Below, one piece after another: positions 7,930 to 52,596 of a stretch of 52,596 nt of DNA (position 1 is its first letter; the number at the start of each line of letters is the position of its first letter). The stretch is from the IMG/VR virus record IMGVR_UViG_3300048057_000049, positions 1-52,596 of that record; one strand, 5' to 3'. Under the pieces are notes generated by a model. It made no database searches. It worked only from the letters and a program-made list of their open reading frames with translations, and had not been told where the DNA came from. A program made the position numbers and the translations under genes. Source of the stretch: a virus.

Positions 7930-7957
7930 TTGACATGCGCCTTGATTCTGTTATAAT
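7930..7957 (+). promoter_or_regulatory. rightward sigma70-like promoter (TTGACA, 16-nt spacer, TGT-TATAAT extended -10)
   Basis: -35 at 7930-7935 and -10 at 7952-7957, preceded by TGT. Confidence 0.65.
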
Positions 7958-8551: not shown

Positions 8552-8772
8552 ACCCTCAAACAATAATCCCGCAAAATATTATAGTCCATTCGCGCCAAAC
8601 CTAATTGTATTTTCAATACAGGACAGGTCGCGACCGTGTAGTGCCGCGCCTGAAGATATCAAGATACATAAAGAATAAAACAAAAAAACAAAACCAGAGA
8701 ATCACAAACCACAAAAAAATCACAAACACACAAACATATGTAAAGAGAATAGGAGCAACATAAAAAGAGAGA

Positions 8773-9130
8773 TAGTTTCATTAGTTGATCCAGTTACAAC
8801 AATTCGATTAAAAGTCCACTTGAAACAACCCCAAAAAAGAAGCTCCGCAAAAGAAAAAACAAAAGAGAGGGAATAAAAGAAAAAAAGAAAGTAGTTTCAT
8901 TAGTTGATCCAGTTGCAACAACTCGATTAATGGTCTGCTTGAAACAACGCCAAAAAAGAGGGCTCCGCCAAAGAAAAGATGAAGAAAAACAAAAAGAAAA
9001 ACAGAAAGAAAAACAAAAGAGAGGGAATAAAAGAAAAAAGAAAGTAGTTTCATTAGTTGATCCAGTTGCAACAACTCGATTAATGGTCTGCTTGAAACAA
9101 CGCCAAAAAGAGGGCTCCGCCAAAGAAAAG
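8773..9130. repeat. three dispersed copies of a ~90-bp element with nested inverted repeats, separated by A-rich spacers
   Basis: Copies start at 8773, 8892 and 9045 (tagtttcattagttgatccagttgcaacaactcgattaatggtctgcttgaaacaacgccaaaaaagagggctccgccaaagaaaag). Confidence 0.9.
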
Positions 9131-9373
9131 AGAAAGACGGCCGAACCTCTGCGATCTGGCAGCCACCCCCCTAACAAAGAAAAAGACGGGTGGACATCTG
9201 CGATCTGGCAGCCACCCCCCTAACAAAGAAAAAGACGGGTGGACATCTGCGATCTGGCAGGCAGCCCCCCTAACAAAGAAAAAGACGGCCGAACCTCTGC
9301 GATCTGGCAGGCAGCCCCCCTAACAAAGAAAAAGACGGCCGAACCTCTGCGATCTGGCAGGCAGCCCCCCTAA
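9121..9373. repeat. five tandem 49-50-bp repeats
   Basis: Unit taacaaagaaaaagacgg[ccgaacct|gtggacat]ctgcgatctggcag[g|c]ca[g|c]cccccc. Unit boundaries at 9172, 9221, 9271, 9321 and 9371. Confidence 0.95.
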
Positions 9374-13944: not shown

Positions 13945-15588
13945 ATGGATTACACAGATTTGGTAAATTTAGCATTGAAGCAGTCGAGCCTGATCAGGCA
14001 CAGCGACAACGCAGGAAATAATTACGTCCAGGAGGACAGTCTGATCAACACGGTATTCGAGTTGCAAACAGAAGTCCAGCGAGCAACCCCATCCAATTAT
14101 GCAGATCTAATGACACACATAGATCACAAGAGATCGGCCAACGGATTAGGAGGCAGCTTTGAGTTTTTGCCACCCGTAGTGGACTTCATAAGACGTGGTA
14201 ACTACTTCCTCATAGTTGAGGTTCCAAACTACGAGAAAGTAACCAGCTGTATCACAGACGACCTATTGAAAAGTGTAACTACACTAAACCGCAACAGGCC
14301 GTTAGAGGAGGTAGCTGAGTACTCAATCTCGCGTCTTATTACAGACAGACTGTATCCAGGGCAGATCTACACGGGGCTAGATCAGGCGGCAAAAAACGAG
14401 ATTGAAGCACACATAACGACTTTCATGGTCTCCCATGGTTGGGAGTTTGAAAAGGTAGGTTACAACGCCTACTATCACAGAAAAGTCGAAATCAACAAAG
14501 AGAACCATCGAGTCATGGACACCAAATTCGATGGTCAGATGTATGCCGAGAAATCGTTTTTTAGTGCCGTCGCCGAAGACGCTTTTGGCAAGTTCTACTA
14601 CACAGATCTAAATGACTTCTCAGACGAATTCACGAAGTATGTCATGGAAATGGCCGATCACTATGGCTATGTCCATGATCAGGAGAGAGGTTGTTTTAAG
14701 GCCAGGCCAATAGAACTGCCAGAAAACATTGTCGAGATCGGTTACAAGATTTTGCGTAACGAAGAATATTACGAGACATCCAAGGATAACCGTCAGTGCA
14801 TCCCACTGACGACAGTGCAGGAACAGTTACGCCAGTTTTCAATACCGATACGAATTGAACAGATCAAGGAACAGCTATTAGGATCACAAGGCATATGGCG
14901 CAAGCCATTGGTAGAGTGCGGCTTTGTAGTCAGAGCAAAAGAACTCACAGAGTCTAATTACCCTAATTACAAAGCACCATCATATTGGTTCGATGCTCTA
15001 TTAAAATGGCGCAAGGTCGGCACAACACACACAGATCTCAAGGCAGAATTCGCCATGGGACTGCCCGTTCATGTAGAAAAATTCGTCCTTGAAGCCGGAT
15101 CTAGCCACTTGTTGTACATCAGCCTGGTCGGATCTAAGAACGCAGTCACGGCAAATTGGGCAGCATTGATGCAGGATCGGCAGGTGGATCTACTGTATCA
15201 ATACTTCACCGTTGGCACCGCAAAAAACCACGTGCGGTTGAACACCTACTTGCCAAGCGGTTTAGTGCAAATGATCCTGATCCACAACGACCTTCTACCA
15301 CGAAACGTTAACCCAACCAGCGAAGCAGCCTACATCATCGCCCCTGAAAATGACGATAGTATGCCCAGCGAATTCCTATCCTTACTGGACAAGATAACAG
15401 ACGTGCCAATTGTACCCGAGTGGGCCGAGTACCTTTGGATTACCGGCAGAGCTATAGGACTGATCAATTACGCGTGCACACCACACAAAATGGTAGGCTG
15501 CACCTTGTGGCGAATCACCGGTCAAAAGAAATGGCGCGAGATCATCTCCACCAGCCTCGCCGCCAAGGAAATAGCCCTTTGTACGTAA
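13945..15588 (+). CDS. large hypothetical protein (547 aa)
   Basis: SD aaaggaggt upstream. Amino-acid composition is balanced and I see no recognisable motif. Confidence 0.65.
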   Translation: MDYTDLVNLALKQSSLIRHSDNAGNNYVQEDSLINTVFELQTEVQRATPSNYADLMTHIDHKRSANGLGGSFEFLPPVVDFIRRGNYFLIVEVPNYEKVTSCITDDLLKSVTTLNRNRPLEEVAEYSISRLITDRLYPGQIYTGLDQAAKNEIEAHITTFMVSHGWEFEKVGYNAYYHRKVEINKENHRVMDTKFDGQMYAEKSFFSAVAEDAFGKFYYTDLNDFSDEFTKYVMEMADHYGYVHDQERGCFKARPIELPENIVEIGYKILRNEEYYETSKDNRQCIPLTTVQEQLRQFSIPIRIEQIKEQLLGSQGIWRKPLVECGFVVRAKELTESNYPNYKAPSYWFDALLKWRKVGTTHTDLKAEFAMGLPVHVEKFVLEAGSSHLLYISLVGSKNAVTANWAALMQDRQVDLLYQYFTVGTAKNHVRLNTYLPSGLVQMILIHNDLLPRNVNPTSEAAYIIAPENDDSMPSEFLSLLDKITDVPIVPEWAEYLWITGRAIGLINYACTPHKMVGCTLWRITGQKKWREIISTSLAAKEIALCT

Positions 15589-15980: not shown

Positions 15981-18900
15981 GGCTCTCACGTATCTAGCAA
16001 AAACGCTTCACATGAGGCCATACGGTAACGAGCTACACACAGAACGCGCAGCAGCAGCACGATCGGCCGTTTCGTCAATCGAAGGCTGTACCGCAGCCAA
16101 CGTGATCAACGATGACTTCATCAATATCCAAGCCAATAGAGGCTCATTCAGTCTTCTGTACCTCAACCCCCCATACGATTTTGATGCAGAACACGGCAGA
16201 GAAGAATATAGATTCCTCAAAAAGTTGCGGCCATTGCTTGCTCCAGGTGGCTTGCTAGTCTGGATCATTCCAGAGCGTATTATCGCTGACAGCAATGTGC
16301 AGCGATACATGGCCAGCTGGTTCAGGGACATGGTAGCATACCGATTCGTAGGCGATTCTTACCAAATCTACAAACAAATCGTCGTTTACGGAACTCACAA
16401 CGCCGTATCAGTAAAACCAGATCCGACTGTCATGCGAGCGATCCGCCAATTGTCGGAACTTAGCGAGAATCTACCGCAGCATCCAACATTCGATGAACCC
16501 CTATATACATTGCAGAAAGTTTCGCCTGCAAGTAAATTCTGGTTTTATGGCCTTGCGCCATCATCGGAGGCGGTTGCAGCCGAGATTAAGGATTATGGCA
16601 TACAGCAGAGCAGTGCTTTTAAGAGTTTACTCAGTCATGAGTCGCTGGTTACACTCGATCCCCTCGTACCCATGAAGGTGGGTCACGTCGCTTCTACGAT
16701 TGCTGCAGGTCATATCAACAACCAGACAATCGAAACAGAGGACGGCGGCATTGTACTTATCAAAGGCTCAGTGTACAACGAGCCAGTGACCAGAGTCACA
16801 CAGGAAGTGGCCGGAACCAAAACAAAGACGAAAAGCATCACCGTATTCGATCCAAGGTCGGTTATCACGACCGTTAACGAAAATGGCGAGATCCAAGTTT
16901 TGCAAAACGAAAAACTTGGATCATTCCTATCGAGCAATTTGGCAACGGTTACAGGCAAACTAAGGGAGTTGTACCCGCCACGCTACAACTTTACACTAGG
17001 CAAGTGGGCCAAGTACATCCGTGGAGTAAATCCAAGACGAATCCCTAACACAGATCGTAAGGGTTTGCTGCCAGCACAAAAACATTCGGCCGTAGCCATC
17101 TGTACGCAGTGGGAAACCAAACGTGAGGCCATTCTGGTTGGGCAGCTAGGCACAGGGAAGACAATCATTTCCATTGCCGCAGCATACGCCATGTACAACA
17201 AAAACAAGACGATGGATCATTTTATCGTCATGTGTCCACCGCACCTGGTTCTGAAATGGATCAGGGAGGTTGGTTTAACATGGCCGGAGGCGAAGGCGAC
17301 TGAGTTGGACTCCATCACAGAAGTGGACCGCTTCTTTGCTGAGAAGGGACCAATATTTGGTATCCTAAAATCAACAAAGGCAAGCCAAGGCTCAGGGTGG
17401 GAACATAACATCTGGTACAATGCACCAACAAGGATCGCCCGACGAACTGTCAAGGAGCCAGTCAATATCATCAGCGGCAGTAAGAAAGTGCGTAAGTTAC
17501 GCAAAATGCGCGATGGTGATGCAGGCTTTCTAAAGGCTCAAGCACAGCTACTCAAAATCCGCGTCAAATGTCCGACATGCTCGAACATCATCATACGCGA
17601 AGGTCGTAAGGACAAGGATGCTAACATGCTGGCAAGTCTAGAGGACTTCACAAACAAAAAGACCTATTGCAAAAACTGTAATGGTGCTTTGTGGCAAGAC
17701 ACAAGCAATGGTACAAAACCACGTTTCCCATTGGCAGCATATATCAACAGCCATTACAAGGGGAAGATTGACATAGCCATTGTAGATGAAGCCCACCAAT
17801 ACAAAGGGGAAGGATCTGATCGTGGAAAATCATACGCGCACATAGTCATGTCCAGTAGAAAAGTGTTAGCCATGACCGGCACCATCTATGGTGGCAAAGC
17901 AAGCACATTGTTTTTCCTTCTGTTTCGCTTGTCCCAGGACTTCAGAAAAGCATGGGTAGATATCAGCAACGCGAATCATACACGTATGATGTGGCGCGAA
18001 TGGAGCAAAACCTATGGTGTCATGGAAGAAACACTCTCCATGACTGAGGATAGCTCCAGCAAAAACAGCGGCAACCGCAGGCCAAACCGCAATGTGCGCG
18101 AAATTGCAGGATCATCTCCTGCAATGCTGCCCTGGTTGTTAAACCGTTCTGTATTCGTATCTCTTGCCGATATGGGTATGGCACTGCCAAATTATCAGGA
18201 GATCGCCGTTTCAGTTGAGATGGATAATCAAATGAAACAGCAGTACGGCATCTTGTTTGAAAGGTTATCAGACGAGCTAGGCAAACGACTAATCAAGGGA
18301 GACCGCTCCCTGTTAGCTAAATACCTATATGCCTTACTTTACTGGCCGGACTCCCCTTGGAGACCGAAGATAGTCAAGGAGGAAGGCAAAGCCGCGCCAT
18401 TGGTAGCAATACCAGGAACCGGACAGCCGTTAGGCGTAGCGCCAAAGGAGGCCAAGATCCTAGAGTTAATTCAGGAGGAATTAGCCGCAGATCGAAAGTG
18501 CCTACTTATGGTAGCGCAATCCAACACATTGGATATCCAACCACAGTGGAAAGAGTTCCTTGCGTTCAACAACATCTCTTCAGAAATCCTGCGCGAAGAT
18601 CCATACAAACGTGAAGCATGGATCAAAAAGCAGGAGAAGCGGGGAACTCAAGTGCTTATCTCCAACCCCAAAAAAGTTGAAACGGGATTAGATATCCTTG
18701 GCTATCCAACCATCATTTGGATGTCTCCAGACTTTTCGATCTACACGGTCATGCAAGCATCCGGCAGAGCCTTTCGTCTTGGCCAGACGAAAGACTGCAA
18801 AGTCTATCACTTCGCTTATGCAGAAACGCTGCAAGACCAGGCTTTGCGCCTGGTGATCGCCAAAGCAGCAGCAGCCAAGCGAGTCAATGGAGACACAATC

Positions 18901-19455: not shown

Positions 19456-19691
19456 TGATTGAGTATCGTATAAACAGTAGCAGCCTGGTGTCAGCAAAAG
19501 CATTGCTAGCACTAGGCAAAGAAATATATGCTAAATCGGGGCTTGTTAACGCTTACGAGGTAGTGTATACTATGTTTATTGATGTCTCCAAACAAACAGT
19601 GGAGGCTATTCTAAAGGGAGAACACAAGGTGTATGAACACGAACGTGGCATCTGGTTTTTCCTAGACGAAAGCGAGGTCAATCATGAATGA
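19455..19691 (+). CDS. hypothetical protein
   Basis: 78-aa ORF whose ATG overlaps the upstream stop. Confidence 0.5.
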   Translation: MIEYRINSSSLVSAKALLALGKEIYAKSGLVNAYEVVYTMFIDVSKQTVEAILKGEHKVYEHERGIWFFLDESEVNHE

Positions 19692-19965
19692 AAAGGAATT
19701 AGAAATCCGTATAGAATCAAACGATTCCTTCCATGTACCTGCAGGATTAATACAAGCGAGATGGATCGCAAGACACGACTTCAAAGAGGCCCTTCACCTA
19801 CTAAACAGCATGTTCGATGGTTTAGTCAAGGTAGACGGTCTCATGAAGATCTTGAGAGGCAACATAGAACCGGTTTTTAACCTAGAAGATCTGACTACAA
19901 ATAGTCTGACATTCAGACTAATGGAAAGTCAGATCAACATGGAATTGTTACACCTTGAAGAATAA
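19684..19965 (+). CDS. hypothetical protein
   Basis: 93-aa ORF with an 8-nt overlap on the upstream gene. Followed by a hairpin at 19976-20007. Confidence 0.5.
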   Translation: MNEKELEIRIESNDSFHVPAGLIQARWIARHDFKEALHLLNSMFDGLVKVDGLMKILRGNIEPVFNLEDLTTNSLTFRLMESQINMELLHLEE

Positions 19966-19975
19966 ACACACATAG

Positions 19976-20007
19976 GTAATGGCCGGCTTGAGCAAGTCGG
20001 CCATTAC
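19976..20007 (+). terminator. intergenic hairpin, TGAGCA-loop family
   Basis: gtaatggccg gcttgagcaagt cggccattac. Confidence 0.45.
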
Positions 20008-20026
20008 ACATTACAAAGGGGACATC

Positions 20027-20428
20027 ATGATCAATCCAAAATCTATACTCTTCTATCTGATCGCAATTGTAGCGATCGTTTTAGCGTCCTGTACTACGTC
20101 ATCTTGTCCAGAACAAGATGACCAAGTAGTCAACGAACATCGAATCAAGGTAAGCACAGCGACATACAGGGATTACTCGTTGGGAAAACTGCCCGTGGAG
20201 AGCGCCACAGCAACGGCCGGTCTCATGTATTTCAAGGCAAAAGACGAAGCAGGATGCAGCCATCTCAGCGAAACAGAAACATTATTGGTGCTGGAGGTTC
20301 TGCACAACAACTGGAAGGCAATTGAAGCCAAAGAAATGCTGGCAGATGCGGCCGTAGTAAATAGTTTTATTGAAAAGTCATACCACGCCCAACATGCATT
20401 GGAAATGACACACAATTGGGATCTATAA
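20027..20428 (+). CDS. putative lipoprotein
   Basis: ATG at 20027 after aaagggga. Signal peptide with a lipobox-like IVLASC. The track start at 19979 lies inside the upstream hairpin. Confidence 0.55.
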   Translation: MINPKSILFYLIAIVAIVLASCTTSSCPEQDDQVVNEHRIKVSTATYRDYSLGKLPVESATATAGLMYFKAKDEAGCSHLSETETLLVLEVLHNNWKAIEAKEMLADAAVVNSFIEKSYHAQHALEMTHNWDL

Positions 20429-20438
20429 GGAGATACAA

Positions 20439-20786
20439 ATGAGCAAAGGAAATAGCGAGATGACCAAATATCCAGAAACGATTCATGAAACACATGACAG
20501 CTGGGGCGACAAGAATTATTACTATAATGAAAAGCGGTTTGACGAGGAAATTTCCATTTTACAAGAGCTAGGTGACGATTGGGCAGACATCGGCAATGTT
20601 GATTGCAACACCTACTCATTCCAAAAAGAGGTAAATGGGAAAGCGATTTATCGACAGAATGGTATTCGCCGTGACTGGTATGTTATTTTCAAACGCGCCA
20701 TCGGCAATAATAGCGAGGGTATGTTTATTTTTGTGGAAGATTCTTTTCACAGCATAGAGGATGCAGAAGAATATATAGCAGGATAA
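20439..20786 (+). CDS. hypothetical protein
   Basis: 115-aa ORF with SD taaggaga upstream. Confidence 0.55.
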   Translation: MSKGNSEMTKYPETIHETHDSWGDKNYYYNEKRFDEEISILQELGDDWADIGNVDCNTYSFQKEVNGKAIYRQNGIRRDWYVIFKRAIGNNSEGMFIFVEDSFHSIEDAEEYIAG

Positions 20787-20854
20787 CGAAGCTTACGCAA
20801 CCTATGATGATAACAGCCCCGCCGGTGGCATCGTAACCGGCAAAGGAAAATGAC

Positions 20855-21076
20855 ATGACGACATTATCAGCAGAGCAAACAAGCGCATTATCATTAGCAG
20901 TCAGCCTCATTTTAGATGCTGCGAAAGAAGCTGGCCCATTGGGTGCACCAAGCGGTATTGTTTACGCCGCACTTAGCGCCCACGGAATGACCCTTCTTTC
21001 TTACCAGTCAATTATTAACGCACTAACCAGAGCGAGCAAAATCACAGTTAAGAATAATTGCATCATTTTAGTTTAA
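20855..21076 (+). CDS. hypothetical protein
   Basis: 73 aa. Preceded by the conserved stem-loop plus aaaggaaaa. Confidence 0.5.
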   Translation: MTTLSAEQTSALSLAVSLILDAAKEAGPLGAPSGIVYAALSAHGMTLLSYQSIINALTRASKITVKNNCIILV

Positions 21077-21154
21077 CCTAACAGCCCCGCCGGTGGCTCA
21101 TAACCGGCAACTACTTTGTATAGATGGGATTTAGCAATTAGTCAAGGAGATGAG

Positions 21155-21307
21155 ATGACGATATTAGACAAGTTTATGGGAAAGACAATGAAGGTTGGTT
21201 CACCTGAGTATGTCGCATGGCTTAAAGCGGCGTCCGATGAGGCGTGGCGAGAAGAGATAGTAGCACAAATTGAGGAATACAACGCCAATAACGACAAGGA
21301 GAAATGA
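21155..21307 (+). CDS. small hypothetical protein (50 aa)
   Basis: ATG at 21155 with aaggaga 7 nt upstream. The track start at 21116 is unsupported. Confidence 0.4.
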   Translation: MTILDKFMGKTMKVGSPEYVAWLKAASDEAWREEIVAQIEEYNANNDKEK

Positions 21308-21344
21308 AATGACACACAATTGGGATCTATAAGGAGATTCAAAA

Positions 21345-21641
21345 ATGTACAACAATAATCCAGTAGGCCATAAACTAGAATCAGAGCAGGAAATAATCGA
21401 ACACCTGAACACATACGTAGGCGAACTAAAATATTCAGTGATTGACGATGAATATGGCCGATGTGTACTTGAAGCCTCTTTAACGAAGCGAAATGAAAAC
21501 CCCGATTTTTCAGAATTTGATTATTCAATTTGGAGCGACCGTATAATTGGCGGCTGTCTGCGCTACAATGACAGCGCTGAGGGTTTAGCCTACTACATGA
21601 TAAATTCGCAAGCCCGAGTTCATTGGACAATTAACGCATAG
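21345..21641 (+). CDS. hypothetical protein
   Basis: 98 aa with SD taaggaga upstream. Confidence 0.5.
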   Translation: MYNNNPVGHKLESEQEIIEHLNTYVGELKYSVIDDEYGRCVLEASLTKRNENPDFSEFDYSIWSDRIIGGCLRYNDSAEGLAYYMINSQARVHWTINA

Positions 21642-21693
21642 GATAACACCATTAACAGCCCCGCCGGTGGCTAATAACCGGCAAAGGAAAATC

Positions 21694-21906
21694 ATGTTCA
21701 AAAAAAATAATGCATCAACAAGCCTGAAGAAAGCGGCATATCGTCAAGGTGCGCGCGGCAACTGGAAATGGGAACATCGAAACGCACGAACTGCCGATGA
21801 AACCCTTGCCATCGTCATAGATAGCAAAGGTAGAGAATTCAAAATCACCTCATATGAACTTGACTGGGTTGGCGATTTAACCTGGCCAGAAGTCAAGGAA
21901 ATGTAA
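21694..21906 (+). CDS. small basic hypothetical protein (paralog of 11694..11912)
   Basis: ATG at 21694 after the stem-loop plus aaaggaaaa. The track start at 21667 (GTG) lies in the hairpin. Confidence 0.55.
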   Translation: MFKKNNASTSLKKAAYRQGARGNWKWEHRNARTADETLAIVIDSKGREFKITSYELDWVGDLTWPEVKEM

Positions 21907-21985
21907 GACTAATTTTACAACAGCCCCGCCGGTGGCTAATAACCGGCAAATAGTTGAGAACAGCAACACACAAGGAGACAGGACG

Positions 21986-22135
21986 ATGACAAAATATTAC
22001 GGCCCAACACATCACAAATTTTCAACCGAACTAATTGCATATTCATTTTTCATGAAGGCAAAATACACATACGGGGATATTCAAGCCCCTCAATTAATCA
22101 ATGGGTTTTGGGTAGTAATCACATACCCAAAATAA
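21986..22135 (+). CDS. small hypothetical protein (49 aa)
   Basis: ATG at 21986 after the shared leader ...aacagcaacacacaaggagac. Confidence 0.45.
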   Translation: MTKYYGPTHHKFSTELIAYSFFMKAKYTYGDIQAPQLINGFWVVITYPK

Positions 22136-22205
22136 ATATCTAACAGCCCCGCCGGTGGCTAATAACCGGCAAATGGTTAAGAACAGCAACACACAAGGAG
22201 ACGAC

Positions 22206-22445
22206 ATGACAATCAAATGGGAATCAGGAGAATCGGGATACAAAACAAAAAAGTTTGGCGGGTTTATGACTGATGAAGTTCAGGGAGTTGTCCATTATTT
22301 TTCCGATGAAAACAAATGGAGTGGGGGAATCATTAATTGGGATAATGAGCAGTTGAGTAAATTCCGCTATGATTTTGAGAGTAAGCGAGCTGCTATTAAA
22401 TGGACTAATCAGCAATTACGCGGAAGTGGAATCAGTTTAGTTTAA
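22206..22445 (+). CDS. hypothetical protein
   Basis: ATG at 22206 after the shared leader with aaggaga. Confidence 0.5.
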   Translation: MTIKWESGESGYKTKKFGGFMTDEVQGVVHYFSDENKWSGGIINWDNEQLSKFRYDFESKRAAIKWTNQQLRGSGISLV

Positions 22446-22512
22446 CCTAACAGCCCCGCCGGTGGCTAATAACCGGCAAATGGTTAAGAACAGCAACACA
22501 CAAGGAGACGAC

Positions 22513-22746
22513 ATGACAAACCAAGAGATTATCGGAACAGTCAAAACATTAAGACAAATCTACGAATCAGACATTACGCCGAAAAATTGCAAAATGTGGT
22601 ATTACGTACAATCTCACAAAGAATGGGAACGAGTCAATTATATTAACGGCTACGATGTTAATACTCAAAGCAACAAACTGAGCGGTGATTTTGGAAAACG
22701 CACCTGGATGCTTCACCCAAACTGCACCGTACTAATAGAGGCATAA
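22513..22746 (+). CDS. hypothetical protein
   Basis: ATG at 22513 after a leader identical to that of 22206. Confidence 0.5.
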   Translation: MTNQEIIGTVKTLRQIYESDITPKNCKMWYYVQSHKEWERVNYINGYDVNTQSNKLSGDFGKRTWMLHPNCTVLIEA

Positions 22747-22792
22747 CCCCCAAGCCCCGCCAGTGGCTCATAACCGGCAAAGGAGTAGTCAG

Positions 22793-23035
22793 ATGAACAA
22801 AGAATTTCAGAACCAAGTATTAGGAATGTTGTTAGGACTGGCAGAAGCCTGGGGCAAAAAACAAGACGAATGGACTCCAGACCAAACCCACCGAATTCGC
22901 GAATTATACCTACTACTGGAAACGCCATTTGTCGTGGCCATTTTCAACAGCGGCTTTACAAGCACGCAGGAATTTTTAACAGAGATTGGCACAGGATTGT
23001 ACCCCGATCTTCAACATAACGAATACTTGAGATAA
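22793..23035 (+). CDS. hypothetical protein
   Basis: ATG at 22793 after a degenerate stem-loop plus aaaggag. Confidence 0.5.
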   Translation: MNKEFQNQVLGMLLGLAEAWGKKQDEWTPDQTHRIRELYLLLETPFVVAIFNSGFTSTQEFLTEIGTGLYPDLQHNEYLR

Positions 23036-23055
23036 CATTCATTAAATTAAGTATA

Positions 23056-23079
23056 GGGGCAGGTTTAACCACCTGCCCC
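23056..23079 (+). terminator. intergenic hairpin, GCAGGT-TAACC family
   Basis: ggggcaggt ttaacc acctgcccc. Confidence 0.45.
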
Positions 23080-23097
23080 AAAAGAGAGTGAATAACC

Positions 23098-23256
23098 ATG
23101 AACAACCTAAACGAAGAAGAAGCAAAAAAACTCAAAGAAAAGATGCTCCGCGCAGGAACGCGAGTAGCACTAACATCAAACGAAAAGCAATTCATACTTG
23201 AAGCAGCAGAAGAAGTCGTGGCCGCAAAGGAAGGTAAACAACCATGGCAACACTAA
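23098..23256 (+). CDS. small hypothetical ORF (52 aa, below the track cutoff)
   Basis: ATG at 23098 (MNNLNEEEAKKLKEKMLRAG...). Overlaps the next start by 13 nt. The antisense ORF 22956..23195 is judged spurious. Confidence 0.35.
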   Translation: MNNLNEEEAKKLKEKMLRAGTRVALTSNEKQFILEAAEEVVAAKEGKQPWQH

Positions 23257-23477
23257 ACAATTGGTTAAAAATCAAAGAGCACAGGCGCAAAGTAGAAAAA
23301 GATTGGCCCAAGTGGACAATGCTTTACACCGACAGTCTGGGTAGAAAATGTCGCCGCACCATCAAGGCACCGACAATCCGTAAAGCAATGCAAAAAATCG
23401 GAGTCAGTACATCGCAACTCCACACACACGGCAGAGTAGCGCCAGGCCGAGAAGATCCGGAAGATCTCACGATCTAG
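23244..23477 (+). CDS. hypothetical protein
   Basis: 77-aa basic ORF followed by a hairpin at 23484-23529. Confidence 0.45.
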   Translation: MATLNNWLKIKEHRRKVEKDWPKWTMLYTDSLGRKCRRTIKAPTIRKAMQKIGVSTSQLHTHGRVAPGREDPEDLTI

Positions 23478-23545: not shown

Positions 23546-24616
23546 ATGAAAAAAGACAGCGACATAACACCTACAATTCCCCCCTCAGCGCACACGTCCC
23601 CTCACATCCCCCCACGTGCTGACGCACAAACCGGCACATCCTCACCCACAACGGCTGAGGATCAGCCACCAACACACGTGCTTCCCCCAGCTGGAACATC
23701 CCCCAACGAAACGGCCGTTCAGGAGGCAACCGCCCTTATGGAAGCACTGGCCGGCACATCCTCACCCACAGAGAACGTGTCCCCCCCCACTCCGCACATG
23801 CAGGCGCATACCAACACGGCCGTTGATCAACCAGAGAATCGGCAACAAGACGAGACCACCTTAGAGTGGTTCGCCAGGTCATTGGCTAAACCAAAGGAAG
23901 AGGATATGTCCGAGATGATACGCTGGACACAGCAGCGTATTATCAAAGAGCAGATGGTTGAATACCATGCTAGATGGATTGAAAAGACGATCCCCATGCT
24001 AAAACGCCTGGACAACGTGCCACACGTGCATGACCGCATCCTGATGAAGCGTACCATTCTGCTTATCGTCACGGCCGATTACCTAGCCGAGACCAGACAG
24101 AGCGTGTTCGACATGGATGTCACAGCCAACAGGCAAGCATGGACGCGGTGGATGAAACGGCCGGAGATCCGAGCAGTCTACGATGACATCTTTAGTGCCA
24201 TGGAATCCGAAGTGCTGAACCATGAGCTATCTGCTATTCGTGCAGCTACCCGAACTACACGTGTGTCAGCAGCCCGAGCAGCCGAAGTTCGAGCATCCTT
24301 GCTAGAGCACGATAACCCATGGGTACAGTTGACCGCTGCGCGTGATGTATTGCAGTCTGCGTCATCTGATACGGCTAGTAAACAGTCTATTCGTGTACAG
24401 GCTGCTTTGTCAGAAGGACAGGTAGAAGAACTGCTCGCACGTGCTAACGCAGAACTGACCAAGTGGAGCCAGCTACCCCCATTGACAGATAGCAATGATA
24501 GACAGTCTATCGTCGTGGTTGACATGCCAACCAAACAAGCCACCATAGAGGGTGATGACCCACCCGTTGAGGGACGCACCGGCCAGTCTAAGCATGGGCC
24601 AGCAGACCAGGAATAG
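23546..24616 (+). CDS. hypothetical protein with a Pro/Thr/Ser-rich repetitive N-terminus and a helical C-terminal domain
   Basis: 356 aa. AGTSSPT occurs twice. It is the last gene before the 1-kb non-coding block. Confidence 0.55.
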   Translation: MKKDSDITPTIPPSAHTSPHIPPRADAQTGTSSPTTAEDQPPTHVLPPAGTSPNETAVQEATALMEALAGTSSPTENVSPPTPHMQAHTNTAVDQPENRQQDETTLEWFARSLAKPKEEDMSEMIRWTQQRIIKEQMVEYHARWIEKTIPMLKRLDNVPHVHDRILMKRTILLIVTADYLAETRQSVFDMDVTANRQAWTRWMKRPEIRAVYDDIFSAMESEVLNHELSAIRAATRTTRVSAARAAEVRASLLEHDNPWVQLTAARDVLQSASSDTASKQSIRVQAALSEGQVEELLARANAELTKWSQLPPLTDSNDRQSIVVVDMPTKQATIEGDDPPVEGRTGQSKHGPADQE

Positions 24617-24624
24617 ACGGCCGT

Positions 24625-24863
24625 GTTCTCCATTGAGAACAAACAATATAAATACTCGATAGTCTTAACACGTAAGTGGTAAGACTATCGAGTATAAGAG
24701 GACTATACCCACACGGCCGTATCGTACGTACGGCCGTGTGGGTATAGGGGGTGCATGTGTGGGTCAGGAAGGTTGGATCACATGCACGTTTAACTATACC
24801 GATAGGTATAGTTAAACAAAAAAAGATGGTACCAAAGAGGTGGCCGGCCGGAGTGCTGGCCAC
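24625..24863. other. cluster of six consecutive hairpins / palindromes
   Basis: Stems at 24625-24640 (6 bp), 24652-24695 (16 bp), 24703-24747 (19 bp), 24751-24787 (9 bp), 24788-24817 (13 bp) and 24840-24863 (6 bp). Confidence 0.85.
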
Positions 24864-25253
24864 ACACGACTTGTCGTGGTTAGAGAGGTCAGCGCAAATT
24901 TTCGGCAGGGATCCCCATTGCAAAATCCATCTTTTTGGAACATCAACCAACATAGGGAAGATACTTAAAAATAAGGGAAGGGGCGGCACAACTATAATTT
25001 TTCTGGCATACCCTGGAAGTTTAAAAAAAGTCCTCTACTATTAGTTGTTATGCTTGTTTTGACAATCGCCAAGTAATAAACGAAGAGACCAAAAACGACG
25101 TGGTTGTCCATATACATTTGTATTGTTTTGCTTGTTTTAGTTGTTTTGCCCCAATGCTACGCAAGCAAAACAAGCAATTCAGAAGGGCATTGACATTGAA
25201 TAGAATTACGACCACGTTGGAGGGAAACAGGGGCCTTCACAATGGTACATATG

Positions 25254-25319
25254 GTAACTTGTAGTTACCATAGTAGTAACTTGTAGTTACCATAGTAGTA
25301 ACTTGTAGTTACCATAGTA
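25254..25319. repeat. 22-bp tandem repeat x3 (gtaacttgtagttaccatagta), each unit containing the inverted repeat gtaac-ttgta-gttac
   Basis: Exact copies at 25254, 25276 and 25298. Confidence 0.95.
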
Positions 25320-25398
25320 GTTTGTTATCAAATAATAGCATCTCCATAACCCAGGAGAAAGCAGGTAAAGCTAGGAGCCTCACGAAACGGCCGAAATA

Positions 25399-25500
25399 TA
25401 TGTCGGTTTTAAGTCTTTATGTCGGTTTTAAGTCTTTATGTCGGTTTTAAGTCTTTATGTCGGTTTTAAGTCTTTATGTCGGTTTTAAGTCTTTATGTCG
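25399..25500. repeat. 19-bp tandem repeat x5.4 (tatgtcggttttaagtctt)
   Basis: Exact copies at 25399, 25418, 25437, 25456 and 25475, plus a partial copy at 25494. Confidence 0.95.
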
Positions 25501-25555
25501 CGACGTCTCATGGATACATTGCACACAAATACGGCCGAGTAAAGCAAAGAGGGCC

Positions 25556-25584
25556 TTGATCAATACGGGACAGTAAGATACAAT
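25556..25584 (+). promoter_or_regulatory. sigma70-like promoter candidate (TTGATC, 17-nt spacer, TACAAT) upstream of 25632
   Basis: -35 at 25556-25561 and -10 at 25579-25584, about 55 nt downstream of the 19-bp iterons. Confidence 0.45.
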
Positions 25585-25631
25585 ATAGAGAGAGCAGCAA
25601 AAAAGCATAATTTTAGTAAAGGGGAAATCAA

Positions 25632-27821: not shown

Positions 27822-28021
27822 TAATTATATTATACCTGCTTATAGGTTGTGTACTGGCAGGTTTCGCGACATACAACGCCATCGTGATCGGCGAAGAAAT
27901 GGATGTCGAAGTAGAAATACTAACATGGGATATAATGAAGATTATACTTTTAGCAGTGATTTTCTGGTTTCCACTAGGAATTCTATTTGAGATAAGAAGG
28001 AGAAAAGGGAGAAAAAGATGA
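27800..28021 (+). CDS. small two-TM membrane protein (holin-like architecture)
   Basis: Two hydrophobic helices plus a basic C-terminal tail RRRKGRKR. 73 aa. Confidence 0.4.
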   Translation: MGIISAIIIILYLLIGCVLAGFATYNAIVIGEEMDVEVEILTWDIMKIILLAVIFWFPLGILFEIRRRKGRKR

Positions 28022-28737
28022 AAAACAACCACAAGCAAATTATACCCATAATTGGCATAGCGATAATCATGCTCAGTATAACTGCCCTTGCTTGGCTAAC
28101 GTCAACAGCACAAAACAAAGCAGCGGCATATACAACGACTTGCGATCTAGATGATACGGATTGTCTGGACGCTTTTAGCCAGCTGGCACTTAGCCTCGCG
28201 GCAGATGAAGAGCATGTCTACCTGCCAATCATCAGGGGCGAGGTAATGGGGCCACCCTATTTACCAACAGCCAGTCCAGTGCCACCAACACAGACGGCCG
28301 TTGTTATCACAGGCGAACCGCCACCAACCATAATTGTCACTGAGATTGTGACCGTGACTCAAGAAGTTACTCCACCACCAACCATAATTGTCACTGAGAT
28401 TGTGACCGTGACTCAAGTAGTTACACCAACGCCAACGAACACACCAACAAACACGGCAACGTCTACACCTACATTTACACCGACAAACACAGCAACGCCG
28501 TGGCCTGGAAACACGTGGACACCAATTCCACCAACCGCGACAAACACGCCAACGCCAGAACCATGGAATACGTGGACACCGACACCAACCGAAACGGCCG
28601 TACCTACGTTTACGCCAACGATTGAACCATGGAACACGTGGACACCAATTCCACCAACCGCGACAAACACGCCAACGCCAGAACCATGGAATACGTGGAC
28701 ACCGACACCAACCGAAACGGCGACGACGATACCATAG
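28018..28737 (+). CDS. membrane-anchored Pro/Thr-rich repeat protein
   Basis: N-terminal TM segment IIPIIGIAIIMLSITALAWL, then an 18-aa repeat x2 and a 30-aa repeat x2. The antisense ORFs are repeat artefacts. Confidence 0.55.
   Translation: MKNNHKQIIPIIGIAIIMLSITALAWLTSTAQNKAAAYTTTCDLDDTDCLDAFSQLALSLAADEEHVYLPIIRGEVMGPPYLPTASPVPPTQTAVVITGEPPPTIIVTEIVTVTQEVTPPPTIIVTEIVTVTQVVTPTPTNTPTNTATSTPTFTPTNTATPWPGNTWTPIPPTATNTPTPEPWNTWTPTPTETAVPTFTPTIEPWNTWTPIPPTATNTPTPEPWNTWTPTPTETATTIP
28321..28428 (+). repeat. 54-bp coding tandem repeat x2 (PPPTIIVTEIVTVTQEVT)
   Basis: Near-identical copies at 28321 and 28375. Confidence 0.9.
28510..28722 (+). repeat. 90-bp coding repeat x2 at 123-bp spacing (NTWTPIPPTATNTPTPEPWNTWTPTPTETA)
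   Basis: Copies at 28510-28599 and 28633-28722. Confidence 0.9.
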
Positions 28738-51623: not shown

Positions 51624-52596
51624 ATGGCTCGTTCTTTTGCTCGCGCCAACTCTGAATATTTAGAGATAAACTCTGCCGTTGTGACCGCAACGCCGCTAAC
51701 AATAGCGTGTTGGTTTTATACTGATAACGTTGGTGCTGGAGTTTTTCAAGACCTCGTAGGTTTATATAATAGCGGGAATGCAAATCAGTATAAATTAGCG
51801 TTCGAGCCAACCAACGCACTGCGAGCCGTTGATTATGGCGCATTTTTCAAATATGCACAGACGACCGGTGTTTCTGTTGACACATGGCATCATGCGTGCG
51901 GTACATTTTACAACGGCGGCTCAAACCGTTCCGTGTTTTTGGATGGCGGCAATAAAGTTACTGATACGTTGTCTGGTGCAAGCGAGGCATTAACGGTAAA
52001 TGAAACGATGGTTGGTGCGGCTGGTGGCTCGTCTAATTTTTTGTCAGGGCGTGTAGCTGAAGCGGCTGTTTGGAATGTGCAGCTAACGGACGCAGAGGTT
52101 GCAATCCTCGGTGCTGGATATTCACCGTTATTTGTCAGGCCGCAAAGTTTAGTTGCCTATTGGCCGCTGGTACGCGGCGACAATGACAAAATTGGCGGCT
52201 ATAACATGACGCCGGTTAATTCGCCCACGTTCGTCGAGCATCCCCCGATGCTCTACCGGTCATTGCCGTTTGTTATAATGCCTGCGGCCACAGGCGGTGA
52301 CCTCAATCTAATCCTTGGAGACATCACGGCCGCATCTCCAGTGCTAGACACCATGGTCTTGGCGCAGGAGCACGATCTAATCCTTGGAGACATCACGGCC
52401 GCATCTCCAGTGCTAGACACCATGGTCTTGGCGCAGGAGCACGATCTAATCCTTGGAGACATAGAGACTCAGGCACCTGCGCTAGACACCATGGTCTTGG
52501 CACAAGAGCACGATCTAATCCTTGGAGACATCACGGCCGCATCTCCAGTGCTAGACACCATGGTCTTGGCACAAGAGCACGATCTAATCCTTGGAG
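51624..52596 (+). CDS. N-terminal part of the LamG-like (concanavalin-type jelly-roll) fibre protein. Runs off the window end and continues at base 117 (or base 2 of the overlap).
   Basis: Pattern LTIACWFY...WHHACGTFYNGGSNRSVFLDGG...FLSGRVAEAAVWNVQLTDAEVAIL is typical of Laminin_G_3 domains. There is no stop before the window end. This ORF is absent from the supplied track. Confidence 0.75.
   Translation, partial: MARSFARANSEYLEINSAVVTATPLTIACWFYTDNVGAGVFQDLVGLYNSGNANQYKLAFEPTNALRAVDYGAFFKYAQTTGVSVDTWHHACGTFYNGGSNRSVFLDGGNKVTDTLSGASEALTVNETMVGAAGGSSNFLSGRVAEAAVWNVQLTDAEVAILGAGYSPLFVRPQSLVAYWPLVRGDNDKIGGYNMTPVNSPTFVEHPPMLYRSLPFVIMPAATGGDLNLILGDITAASPVLDTMVLAQEHDLILGDITAASPVLDTMVLAQEHDLILGDIETQAPALDTMVLAQEHDLILGDITAASPVLDTMVLAQEHDLILG
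52305..52596 (+). repeat. the same 69-bp tandem repeat array (part upstream of the junction)
   Basis: Units begin at about 52305 within the LamG ORF. Confidence 0.95.
52481..52596. repeat. 116-bp terminal overlap identical to 1..116 (circular closure or assembly overlap)
   Basis: Base-by-base identity checked by eye. Confidence 0.9.

Follow-up and report, generated by a model that had tools for sequence, protein, structure and literature searches.

What is the short sequence that recurs in the gaps between the small genes of an uncultured virus, and what does it do there? The question is raised by the IMG/VR record IMGVR_UViG_3300048057_000049, whose full 52,596 nucleotides (52.6 kb) we refer to as the window, and in which an initial annotation, made from the letters alone, had reported seven copies of a conserved stem-loop in the intergenic gaps of an array of small genes. 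Consensus scan, repeat search and covariance model together give seven copies, numbered here 1-7 along the + strand: all are co-oriented on that strand between 20816 and 22778, and all fall in gaps between small open reading frames (ORFs). The 29-nt consensus, with at most three mismatches, matches six times in the window against 0.00 expected from 100 dinucleotide shuffles; copy 1, whose loop is 1 nt longer and which lies outside the consensus match, was recovered by the repeat search and the covariance model. The model scores all seven copies at 49-60 bits and the next best position in the window at less than 12 bits, and over this span it detects no further copy, no decayed copy and none on the other strand. 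Our answer to the question, held with slightly better than even confidence, is that the element is a portable module of pseudoknot plus ribosome-binding site, carried on an early polycistronic mRNA and doubling as a homology patch for cassette exchange.

Sequence and fold of the element

The element had been described as a plain stem-loop with a 6-bp stem, GCCGGT/ACCGGC, and a loop of 8-9 nt. These measurements hold, but the first three loop nucleotides pair with the 5' flank, the stem of copy 7 is mismatched, and the plain stem-loop does not stand: judged from its covariation, the element is an H-type pseudoknot with two covarying helices rather than a simple hairpin. Its layout is 5'-GCC-CC-GCCGGU-GGC-(N3-8)-ACCGGC-3' (25-26 nt in the window copies), in which loop bases 1-3 (GGC) pair with the upstream GCC to give the strand order S1a-S2a-S1b-S2b. 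Stem 1 (S1, GCC/GGC) thus has 3 bp and stem 2 (S2, GCCGGU/ACCGGC) 6 bp; loop 1 (L1) is CC, loop 2 (L2) is absent, and loop 3 (L3) is a variable stretch of 3-8 nt, usually with a 3' A. Spanning 6 bp with a 2-nt L1 and 3 bp with a 3-8-nt L3 is sterically plausible by analogy with solved pseudoknots. The hairpin is predicted to be stable (-12 kcal/mol), with no U-tract and no terminator predicted there. Copy 7 is degenerate, its S2a being GCCAGT with an uncompensated G>A change that leaves an A.C mismatch, and its 5' flank reads CCAA, not AACA. The N-termini MANNRQ that the ORF track produces by reading through from a GTG inside the element are artefacts, as had been recognised from the start.

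Both helices are supported by compensatory changes. When IMG/VR was rescanned with the stem written as N, S2 variants changed on both sides appeared (GCCGGG/CCCGGC, GCCGGA/UCCGGC and GCCCGU/ACGGGC), together with G.U variants (GCCGGU/GCUGGC, GCCGGA/UCCGGU, and ACCGGU); since the opposite strand would have an A.C mismatch for each G.U pair, the folding strand must be the sense strand. A rescan leaving the 5' flank and loop free gave the S1 variants GCG/CGC, CCG/CGG and UGC/GCG, in which the partner triplet changes alongside, and S1 is complementary in 127 of 131 distinct gene-junction instances compared with 27 of 98 elsewhere. Pairing holds in 93.7% of cells across 49 distinct sequences, and seven of the nine pairs (all three of S1 and four of the six of S2) are altered on both sides, in 23 cells, figures that demonstrate compensation and are not an unbiased census, as the sequences came from patterns each fixing part of the element. 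The covariation score of 0.190, against 0.063 in shuffles, was reached by none of 500 shuffles, and every slid register scores much worse. The stems are otherwise near-invariant, which fits selection for maximal stability; they are all G-C, and a swap from G-C to C-G requires two simultaneous transversions.

These changes bear directly on whether the repeat is instead a double-stranded DNA operator, at which a dimeric protein would bind 6-bp inverted repeats set 8-9 bp apart, as in stoperators or in the extended start-associated sequences (ESAS) of mycobacteriophages. The inverted repeat is indeed perfect over 6 bp, and multiple co-oriented intergenic copies are what stoperators and ESAS present. 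However, the compensatory changes preserve pairing and not half-site identity, G.U (G.T) is tolerated on the sense strand only, the second helix ties the 5' flank to what would be a mere spacer, and that spacer varies from 6 to 11 nt, so that we consider such an operator highly improbable.

Resemblances of the primary sequence to other signals were rejected. TGGC-N10-GCA fits the -24/-12 pattern of a sigma54 promoter in copies with an 8-nt loop, but loop length varies, the GG and GC bases covary as RNA, and transcription would start past the Shine-Dalgarno sequence (SD). GCCGGTGG resembles the E. coli Chi site GCTGGTGG, a likeness that compensatory variants (GCCGGTCGG, GCCGGGGGC and others) destroy.

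An H-type pseudoknot of this size beside an SD also recalls the small riboswitch aptamers of preQ1-I, SAM-II or guanidine-III style, which would respond to a metabolite and gate the adjacent SD. With Rfam 15, whose families include preQ1, SAM-II/V, guanidine-III, ribozymes and phage motifs, the window gives no match at gathering score, and at E<=10 the region 20700-22900 gives two chance snoRNA matches only. The element also offers few unpaired positions for a pocket, its L3 is free in sequence and in length (3-8 nt), the SD lies outside the fold, cellular genomes lack it, and the downstream genes are unrelated ORFans; we give a riboswitch very little credence. The element sequence itself was not found in the literature searched, where only unrelated primers matched. 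We file the element among the 'mobile regulatory linkers', built here on an uncurated RNA motif of pseudoknot plus SD.

Place on the transcript and spread between phages

The element occupies a fixed place relative to the coding sequences around it. Of 106 distinct elements collected with no context filter, 96 have a stop codon upstream and an SD with start codon downstream, all on one strand, and the other 10 fail solely through the strictness of the criteria. The pseudoknot follows the stop at a median distance of 10 nt (mostly 7-12 nt, seldom shorter); from its end to the start codon the median is 13 nt, and a small group of copies has 35-38 nt there. The stretch most complementary to the extended anti-SD starts at offset 0 after the last stem pair in 92 of the 139 distinct junctions. 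Within the window the two classes had already been told apart correctly, copies 1, 3 and 7 adjoining the SD AAAGGA(A/G) and copies 4-6 sharing a further leader of about 35 nt. The sequence 3' of the hairpin is an A-rich SD on the + strand and GGGGCTGTT on the - strand. Taken together, the sense-strand G.U pairs, the covariation and the fixed place beside the SD support a role at the RNA level near the ribosome-binding site.

One such role would be to cut the early transcript into segments, the copies being terminators, attenuators or endonuclease processing sites of RNase III type, comparable to T7 RNase III sites or to the stem-loops of the promoter-early stem-loop elements (PeSLs) of T4-like phages. 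Every intergenic gap does contain a G+C-rich hairpin, attenuation of transcription has been shown for the stem-loops of PeSLs (PMC2839356), and one outlier copy in another contig is followed by TTTTT. The initial annotation had, however, argued from the missing U-tract that these are not classical terminators, and rightly so: no window copy and nearly no other copy is followed by one, and a terminator scan of the + strand across the array is empty. Seven terminators in series before the structural genes, with no promoter between them, would silence the genes downstream, and neither terminators nor processing sites explain the pseudoknot covariation or the contiguity with the SD. RNase III needs roughly 20 bp, far more than a 6-bp stem provides. 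We regard this whole class of explanation as very unlikely.

A recoding signal, suggested by a pseudoknot 7-11 nt past a stop codon, was rejected because the spacing varies modulo 3, slippery sites are lacking and further stop codons follow in frame. A sigma70 promoter within the element or its leaders was likewise rejected, none being found in the promoter scan.

The search of related and metagenome contigs that the initial annotation proposed shows that the element recurs widely but is missing from four syntenic relatives that share the window's backbone. An exact-pattern scan of IMG/VR found 13 contigs; three patterns matched 13, 32 and 40 stretches, of which the two relaxed ones also pick up chance and unrelated matches, and roughly 30 distinct contigs carry a genuine element. 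At least 120 contigs do so in a metagenome scan. Among 185,579 genomes, one per species, there are two real copies, both on short contigs of metagenome-assembled genomes (MAGs), while five of the seven matches were discarded as chance occurrences in high-G+C coding DNA. Carrier loci range in G+C from 0.36 to 0.63 and share with the window only DnaB (~27% identity) and SSB. The distribution is therefore very wide and confined to phages, with the same consensus across otherwise unrelated uncultured ones. A mimic of CRISPR repeats (an RNA anti-CRISPR) was rejected, as the genome scan showed no matching arrays, though no search dedicated to them was run, and the pseudoknot pairing would be atypical.

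Many carriers have a single copy, placed after the first small gene of the early operon, just 3' of a strong TTGACA-17-TGTATAAT promoter, with RecT-like, replisome-organiser and DnaB genes nearby. In seven of the carriers this promoter is followed by a CA-rich 5' untranslated region (UTR) (atatagtaaagaacatagacaacaggagac) before the first small gene. The long leaders of window copies 4-6 resemble these CA-rich UTRs in sequence and may derive from the 5' UTR of a first gene.

Two further recurrent sequences came to light in IMG/VR. Eight contigs share another element with a GCCGGT/ACCGGC stem, catCGTCCGCCGGTCACGATTAAACCGGCc, in which CGT...ACG could make an S1 with a 1-nt L2 and which adjoins an opposite-strand start codon; this may be a related pseudoknot family in another context. 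Five others have a conserved gaacgaaAGCCCCGCAGAGGGC(A/G)(C/A)GGAACCGGGCAAGGAGgaggag, in which the AGCCCC...GGC...AAGGAG frame is kept and the S2 pairing is not.

The main rival to a module acting in cis is an operator for a trans-acting RNA-binding regulator, of phage or host, which would sit 0-4 nt from the SD, block the 30S subunit and switch an early accessory regulon off (or on). Phage-encoded regulators such as T4 RegA and gp32 provide a precedent. A further one comes from the anti-CRISPR-associated proteins Aca2 and Aca1, which bind structured RNA beside the ribosome-binding site of small anti-defence operons (PMC13551039). The strong conservation of sequence, including the unpaired CC of L1 and the 3' A of L3, the position immediately beside the SD and the phage-only distribution would all suit a regulator. 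Against it, no protein family travels with the element: the commonest neighbours, namely the RecT-like, replisome-organiser and DnaB genes, occur at no more than 15 of 41 loci, 6 of them not genuine carriers, and an all-against-all BLASTP of carrier-locus ORFs found no conserved protein, an absence that is weak evidence given that it covers at most 14 kb per carrier. Among the window proteins scanned there is no RNA-binding or nuclease domain. Phages of 36-63% G+C with hardly a protein in common use one and the same sequence, in contrast to known pairs of operator and regulator, which diverge by lineage (Aca1 clusters, ESAS subclusters); the backbone relatives lack the element, and the long-leader copies would escape steric repression. 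A regulator-binding operator thus appears to us improbable, if the most serious of the competing explanations.

Cassette exchange and the favoured interpretation

The array had been likened to a cassette system of short, unrelated ORFs around one reusable element that might serve as a point of recombination, and related contigs support both ideas. Arrays related to that of the window, with a 'taACA' prefix and both leader types, are present on 13 short metagenome contigs (Ga03073xx samples), and gene content between copies varies as had been anticipated. A 91-aa gene (MTQITQYALNLPAANV...) always has the element immediately upstream and, among relatives, at least six unrelated upstream neighbours; in contig L138 the element, long leader and 49-aa gene are 95% identical to those of the window while the upstream gene differs. 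Pairwise blocks of homology repeatedly open at, or a few bases from, the first base of the element or close on its last base. Of 140 internal block ends, 67 map to the element +-15 nt, where 7.2% would be expected; the contigs being related, these ends are not independent of one another. In these alignments, then, mosaic breakpoints coincide with the element. Exchange would have proceeded by ordinary homologous recombination; many carriers encode RecT-like annealases.

The same coincidence could arise if the element were a recombination site at the DNA level, its sense strand folding as single-stranded DNA in the manner of attC or of IS200/IS605 ends and being cut by a dedicated recombinase, with SD adjacency incidental. 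Such a site would lie exactly at cassette junctions, as the element does, would have a strand-specific fold, and would account for an integron-like array. The window ORFs scanned, however, gave no recombinase domain of tyrosine, serine or HUH type, and all that was seen elsewhere was an unrelated HNH gene in one relative. The initial annotation had already judged the element shorter than attC and no integrase to be present, and both points hold: it measures 25-26 nt, and Pfam and PHROGs gave no recombinase on the window proteins scanned, a set that does not comprise every small ORF. At ~26 nt it compares with 57-141 nt for attC. The polar stop/SD/start geometry of ~90% of copies is expected of an mRNA element, not of a DNA site, the single copies at the first early-operon junction of many phages form no cassette array, and at the resolution of the data no unique crossover point emerges. 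We think a dedicated DNA site quite unlikely.

The window contains a second linker of 38 nt (GAAATGACACACAATTGGGATCTATAAGGAGAT[A/T]CAAA), unrelated to the pseudoknot, that precedes two other small genes. The claim that every array gene stands behind the stem-loop is correspondingly true of seven genes, while the gene at 21345-21641 follows this different repeat. Its downstream copy starts at the stop codon of a 50-aa ORF, the truncated remnant of a 202-206-aa gene found in two of the backbone relatives, L306 and L308, which suggests recombination at the second linker too. In L308 there is, in addition, an exact 53-nt duplicate (TATGGAGCAGGGCCAGACGAGAGTCTCCCCTGCTCCGAGGAGACAACCACATG) at 15281-15333 and 16655-16707, flanking a 1.4-kb two-gene segment and consisting of a 9-bp hairpin with zero spacer to the SD GAGGAG, followed by ATG. 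Its sequence is unrelated to the element; by its layout it appears analogous, the same design in a different sequence.

We therefore return to the portable pseudoknot and ribosome-binding-site module as our favoured explanation. Pseudoknot, SD and start codon would form a unit of translation initiation that travels with small accessory genes, and the 26-32 nt common to many phages and to neighbouring junctions would serve as the homology patch through which cassettes are exchanged, inserted and deleted, a process that could have built the seven-copy array in this phage's hypervariable slot. The RNA would act in cis on the downstream cistron, in translation or in protection of the mRNA. In the mechanism we prefer, the pseudoknot would be a 'bumper', all G-C and very stable, that directly adjoins the SD helix and works in cis with host machinery. 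The knot would stay folded during termination by the upstream ribosome; considering the dimensions of the ribosome footprint, a lower limit of ~7 nt after the stop is what would be expected if it must do so. The 5' side, knotted and all G-C, would protect the downstream cistron when RNase E/J attack in the 5'-to-3' direction or scan, and stacking on the SD-anti-SD helix might strengthen 30S binding. The zero-spacer junction with the SD suggests either such coaxial stacking or steric control by a bound factor.

A more specific and distinctly speculative form of the module is a host-independent, plug-and-play enhancer and protector of translation, in which S2, with S1 stacked on it, would be coaxial with the SD-anti-SD helix while the 5' side acted like an exoribonuclease-resistant RNA (xrRNA). 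Coaxial S2 would lengthen or stabilise the initiation helix on the 30S platform, where the 3' end of 16S rRNA stops. A module usable in any SD-using host would explain why one sequence serves phages of 36-63% G+C and newly acquired genes, and also the different zero-spacer hairpin of L308.

Several observations weigh against the favoured explanation. Contiguity with the SD is not obligatory: pseudoknot and SD are 25-45 nt apart in ~15% of copies, among them copies 2 and 4-6 of the window. Accessibility of the SD and AUG in ViennaRNA is 0.583 for the native sequence and 0.585 with the element deleted, no gain, which leaves a plain insulator, or an element that simply keeps the SD open, without computational support; an effect of that kind on SD presentation was rejected. 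S1 has only 3 bp, the retrieval patterns under-sample variation so that the counts above are no census, and the stems may owe some of their near-invariance not to stability but to recent horizontal spread, or to a specific partner that recognises them. The phage backbone can do without the element, and the hosts are uncultured.

If the explanation is true, the element represents a widespread, uncurated class of phage cis-acting RNA and a concrete 'linker' of Susskind-Botstein modular evolution outside the T4 group, with translational rather than transcriptional autonomy. It bears on how accessory, possibly anti-defence, ORFans move between unrelated phages without upset of their expression, and on whether a structure flush with the SD tunes initiation or mRNA survival independently of host; it would also be a compact part for operon engineering. 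Since it is confined to phages, it could be used in viromes to locate hypervariable islands of accessory genes.

The surrounding genome and related systems

The window is a complete, novel tailed-phage genome, of which a near-identical contig of 52,285 bp (99.86% identical, with an identical array) is also available. The same tandem repeat runs off both ends, from which we take the genome, ~52.3 kb, to be complete and either closed or overlapping at its termini, with one repeat-rich gene across the junction. DnaB and methyltransferases are encoded on the - strand; a long + strand run comprises SSB, a DUF6094-SNF2 helicase, the small-gene array, terminase, capsid and tape measure. The perfect extended sigma70 promoter lies in the divergent region from which replication genes run leftward and early genes rightward; tandem repeats follow just 3' of it, and from 7.5 to 27 kb the + strand has almost no terminator-like sites. 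Coordinates are collected in the table.

Features of the array and its surroundings (positions in the window)
Feature	Position	Strand	Details
Hypervariable slot	19979-23477	+	13 small genes between conserved 93-aa gene (19684-19965) and conserved 356-aa gene (23546-24616)
Second linker, copy 1 of 2	20402-20439	+	38 nt, GAAATGACACACAATTGGGATCTATAAGGAGATACAAA; immediately 5' of start codon 20439
Second linker, copy 2	21306-21343	+	97% identical to copy 1; immediately 5' of start codon 21345
Pseudoknot copy 1	20816-20841	+	S1a 20816-18, L1 20819-20, S2a 20821-26, S1b 20827-29, L3 ATCGTA 20830-35, S2b 20836-41
Downstream of copy 1	from 20842	+	SD-like AAAGGAA; start codon 20855
Pseudoknot copy 2	21084-21108	+	L3 TCATA; then unique 46-nt leader, SD AAGGAG, start codon 21155
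Pseudoknot copy 3	21658-21682	+	L3 TAATA; SD abutting (AAAGGAAAA); start codon 21694
Pseudoknot copy 4	21923-21947	+	Then long CA-rich leader 21948-21985 (AAATAGTTGAGAACAGCAACACACAAGGAGACAGGACG); start codon 21986
Pseudoknot copy 5	22146-22170	+	Then long leader 22171-22205; start codon 22206
Pseudoknot copy 6	22453-22477	+	Then long leader 22478-22512; start codon 22513
Pseudoknot copy 7	22754-22778	+	Degenerate; SD AAAGGAG abutting; start codon 22793
Eight small cassette genes	20855-23035	+	No Pfam or PHROG family
Cassette gene 1	20855-21076	+	73 aa
Cassette gene 2	21155-21307	+	50 aa, truncated remnant
Cassette gene 3	21345-21641	+	98 aa
Cassette gene 4	21694-21906	+	70 aa
Cassette gene 5	21986-22135	+	49 aa
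Cassette gene 6	22206-22445	+	79 aa
Cassette gene 7	22513-22746	+	77 aa
Cassette gene 8	22793-23035	+	80 aa
End repeat	1-534 and 52306-52596		69-nt (23-codon) tandem repeat
Extended sigma70 promoter	7930-7957		TTGACA-16-TATAAT, TG before
Tandem repeat	8762-8977		119 nt x1.8
Tandem repeat	8982-9018		12 nt x3
Tandem repeat	9127-9373		50 nt x5, 94% identity (AAAGAAAAAGACGGCCGAACCTCTGCGATCTGGCAGGCAGCCCCCCTAAC)
Non-coding gap	24617-25631		~1 kb
Palindrome in gap	24652-24695		Perfect, 20-nt arms
Palindrome in gap	24703-24747		Perfect, 19-nt arms
Tandem array in gap	25254-25321		Perfect, 22 nt x3.1
Tandem array in gap	25399-25500		Perfect, 19 nt x5.4
239-aa gene	28018-28737		Internal 54-57-nt tandem repeats at 28317-28703
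Duplicated segment in 239-aa gene	28510-28598 and 28633-28721		89 nt

Cultured phages gave no megablast match to this genome and one weak match to its capsid, and its TerL is at most 29% identical to any record; a helicase search of IMG/VR found no relatives. The four syntenic backbone relatives were retrieved via helicases 53-59% identical to that of the window. They keep DnaB, SSB, a 189-aa and a 547-aa gene, the helicase and two small genes after it, and two of the four (L306 and L308) also keep the 356-aa gene. None of the four has a copy of the element, nor, apart from the 50-aa truncated remnant, a homologue of any gene of the slot between the conserved flanking genes. The array thus fills a hypervariable slot, and the element is not needed by the backbone.

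Right after the array and the 356-aa gene lies a non-coding gap rich in perfect palindromes and tandem arrays; the repeats are iteron-like, and the region may be a replication origin or a regulatory switch. As to hosts, homologues of the DUF6094-SNF2 helicase often come from Chloroflexota MAGs (Anaerolineae, Ardenticatenaceae, Ca. Leptofilum), some on contigs >100 kb, and one element-bearing contig was binned as Dehalococcoidales. We treat Chloroflexota of digesters, sediments and groundwater as a lead only.

How does the element compare with known systems? In many single-copy carriers its place after the first rightward early gene, beside the divergent promoter region, recalls lambda nutR and HK022 putR. 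A nut site consists of boxA and then a 15-nt boxB with a GNRA-like pentaloop, in one or two promoter-proximal copies. The element differs in having no boxA (CGCUCUUA-like), no boxB-type pentaloop hairpin and no two-stem put fold; its flanks are A/C-rich, its 8-9-nt loop is partly paired, and it is fused to an SD. The window moreover has seven copies, 13 kb from the sigma70 promoter. With integron attC it shares arrays of short, promoterless, unrelated ORFs in one orientation and a structured repeat at the points of recombination. In contrast to attC (57-141 bp, with imperfect R''-L''/L'-R' repeats and extrahelical bases), it is a pseudoknot of 25-26 nt tied to the downstream SD and not to the 3' end of a cassette, often occurs singly, and has no integrase or site-specific recombinase found with it.

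Luteovirus frameshift pseudoknots of beet western yellows virus (BWYV) type (26-28 nt) and the leader of T4 gene 32 have two short G+C-rich helices, a C-containing L1 of 1-2 nt and an A-containing L3. Size and topology are alike, and the gene 32 knot also lies upstream of a ribosome-binding site in a phage mRNA. The element, however, has its helix lengths reversed (3 + 6 bp), follows a stop codon in no fixed frame and has no slippery site; it is multi-copy and shared between phages, whereas the gene 32 site autoregulates a single gene.

In Cluster K mycobacteriophages the start-associated sequence (SAS) is a 13-bp repeat, GGGATAGGAGCCC, 3-7 bp before start codons; in ESAS an inverted repeat is present as well, upstream of the SD motif (Pope et al. 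2011, PMC3203893). Like the element, these are one-orientation repeats before the starts of non-structural genes of varied families, including or adjoining the SD and missing from the host genome, and their function is thought to concern translation initiation. The 17-bp imperfect repeats of ESAS do not covary, were judged DNA-binding sites and have a subcluster-specific consensus (PMC3203893). The element differs in sequence, both of its helices covary, its consensus is shared by very different phages, and it marks mosaic junctions.

The initial annotation had compared the element with PeSLs, which in T4-like myoviruses are ~100 bp long and combine a strong sigma70-like early promoter with a terminator or attenuator hairpin (Arbiol et al. 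2010, PMC2839356; Comeau et al. 2014, PMC4122927). The comparison stands for the role as linker and in shuffling and not for composition: promoter scan and reading of -10/-35 positions show no promoter at any of the seven copies. PeSL cassettes are transcriptionally autonomous, whereas the element, of 26-32 nt, promoterless and with no U-tract, could confer only translational or post-transcriptional autonomy. It also differs in its carriers, being found nearly unchanged between unrelated, siphovirus-like uncultured phages; the window itself, at ~52 kb, encodes a tape-measure protein and has no close relative among cultured phages. Common to both are a G+C-rich stem-loop, hyperplastic ORFan regions, a linker that ends in an SD and the homologous exchange of cassettes, seen here in a slot without homologues in syntenic relatives, in differing neighbours and in blocks that end at the element. 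Set apart from PeSLs by the defining promoter, and probably also by the terminator, the element is functionally closest to them among known systems.

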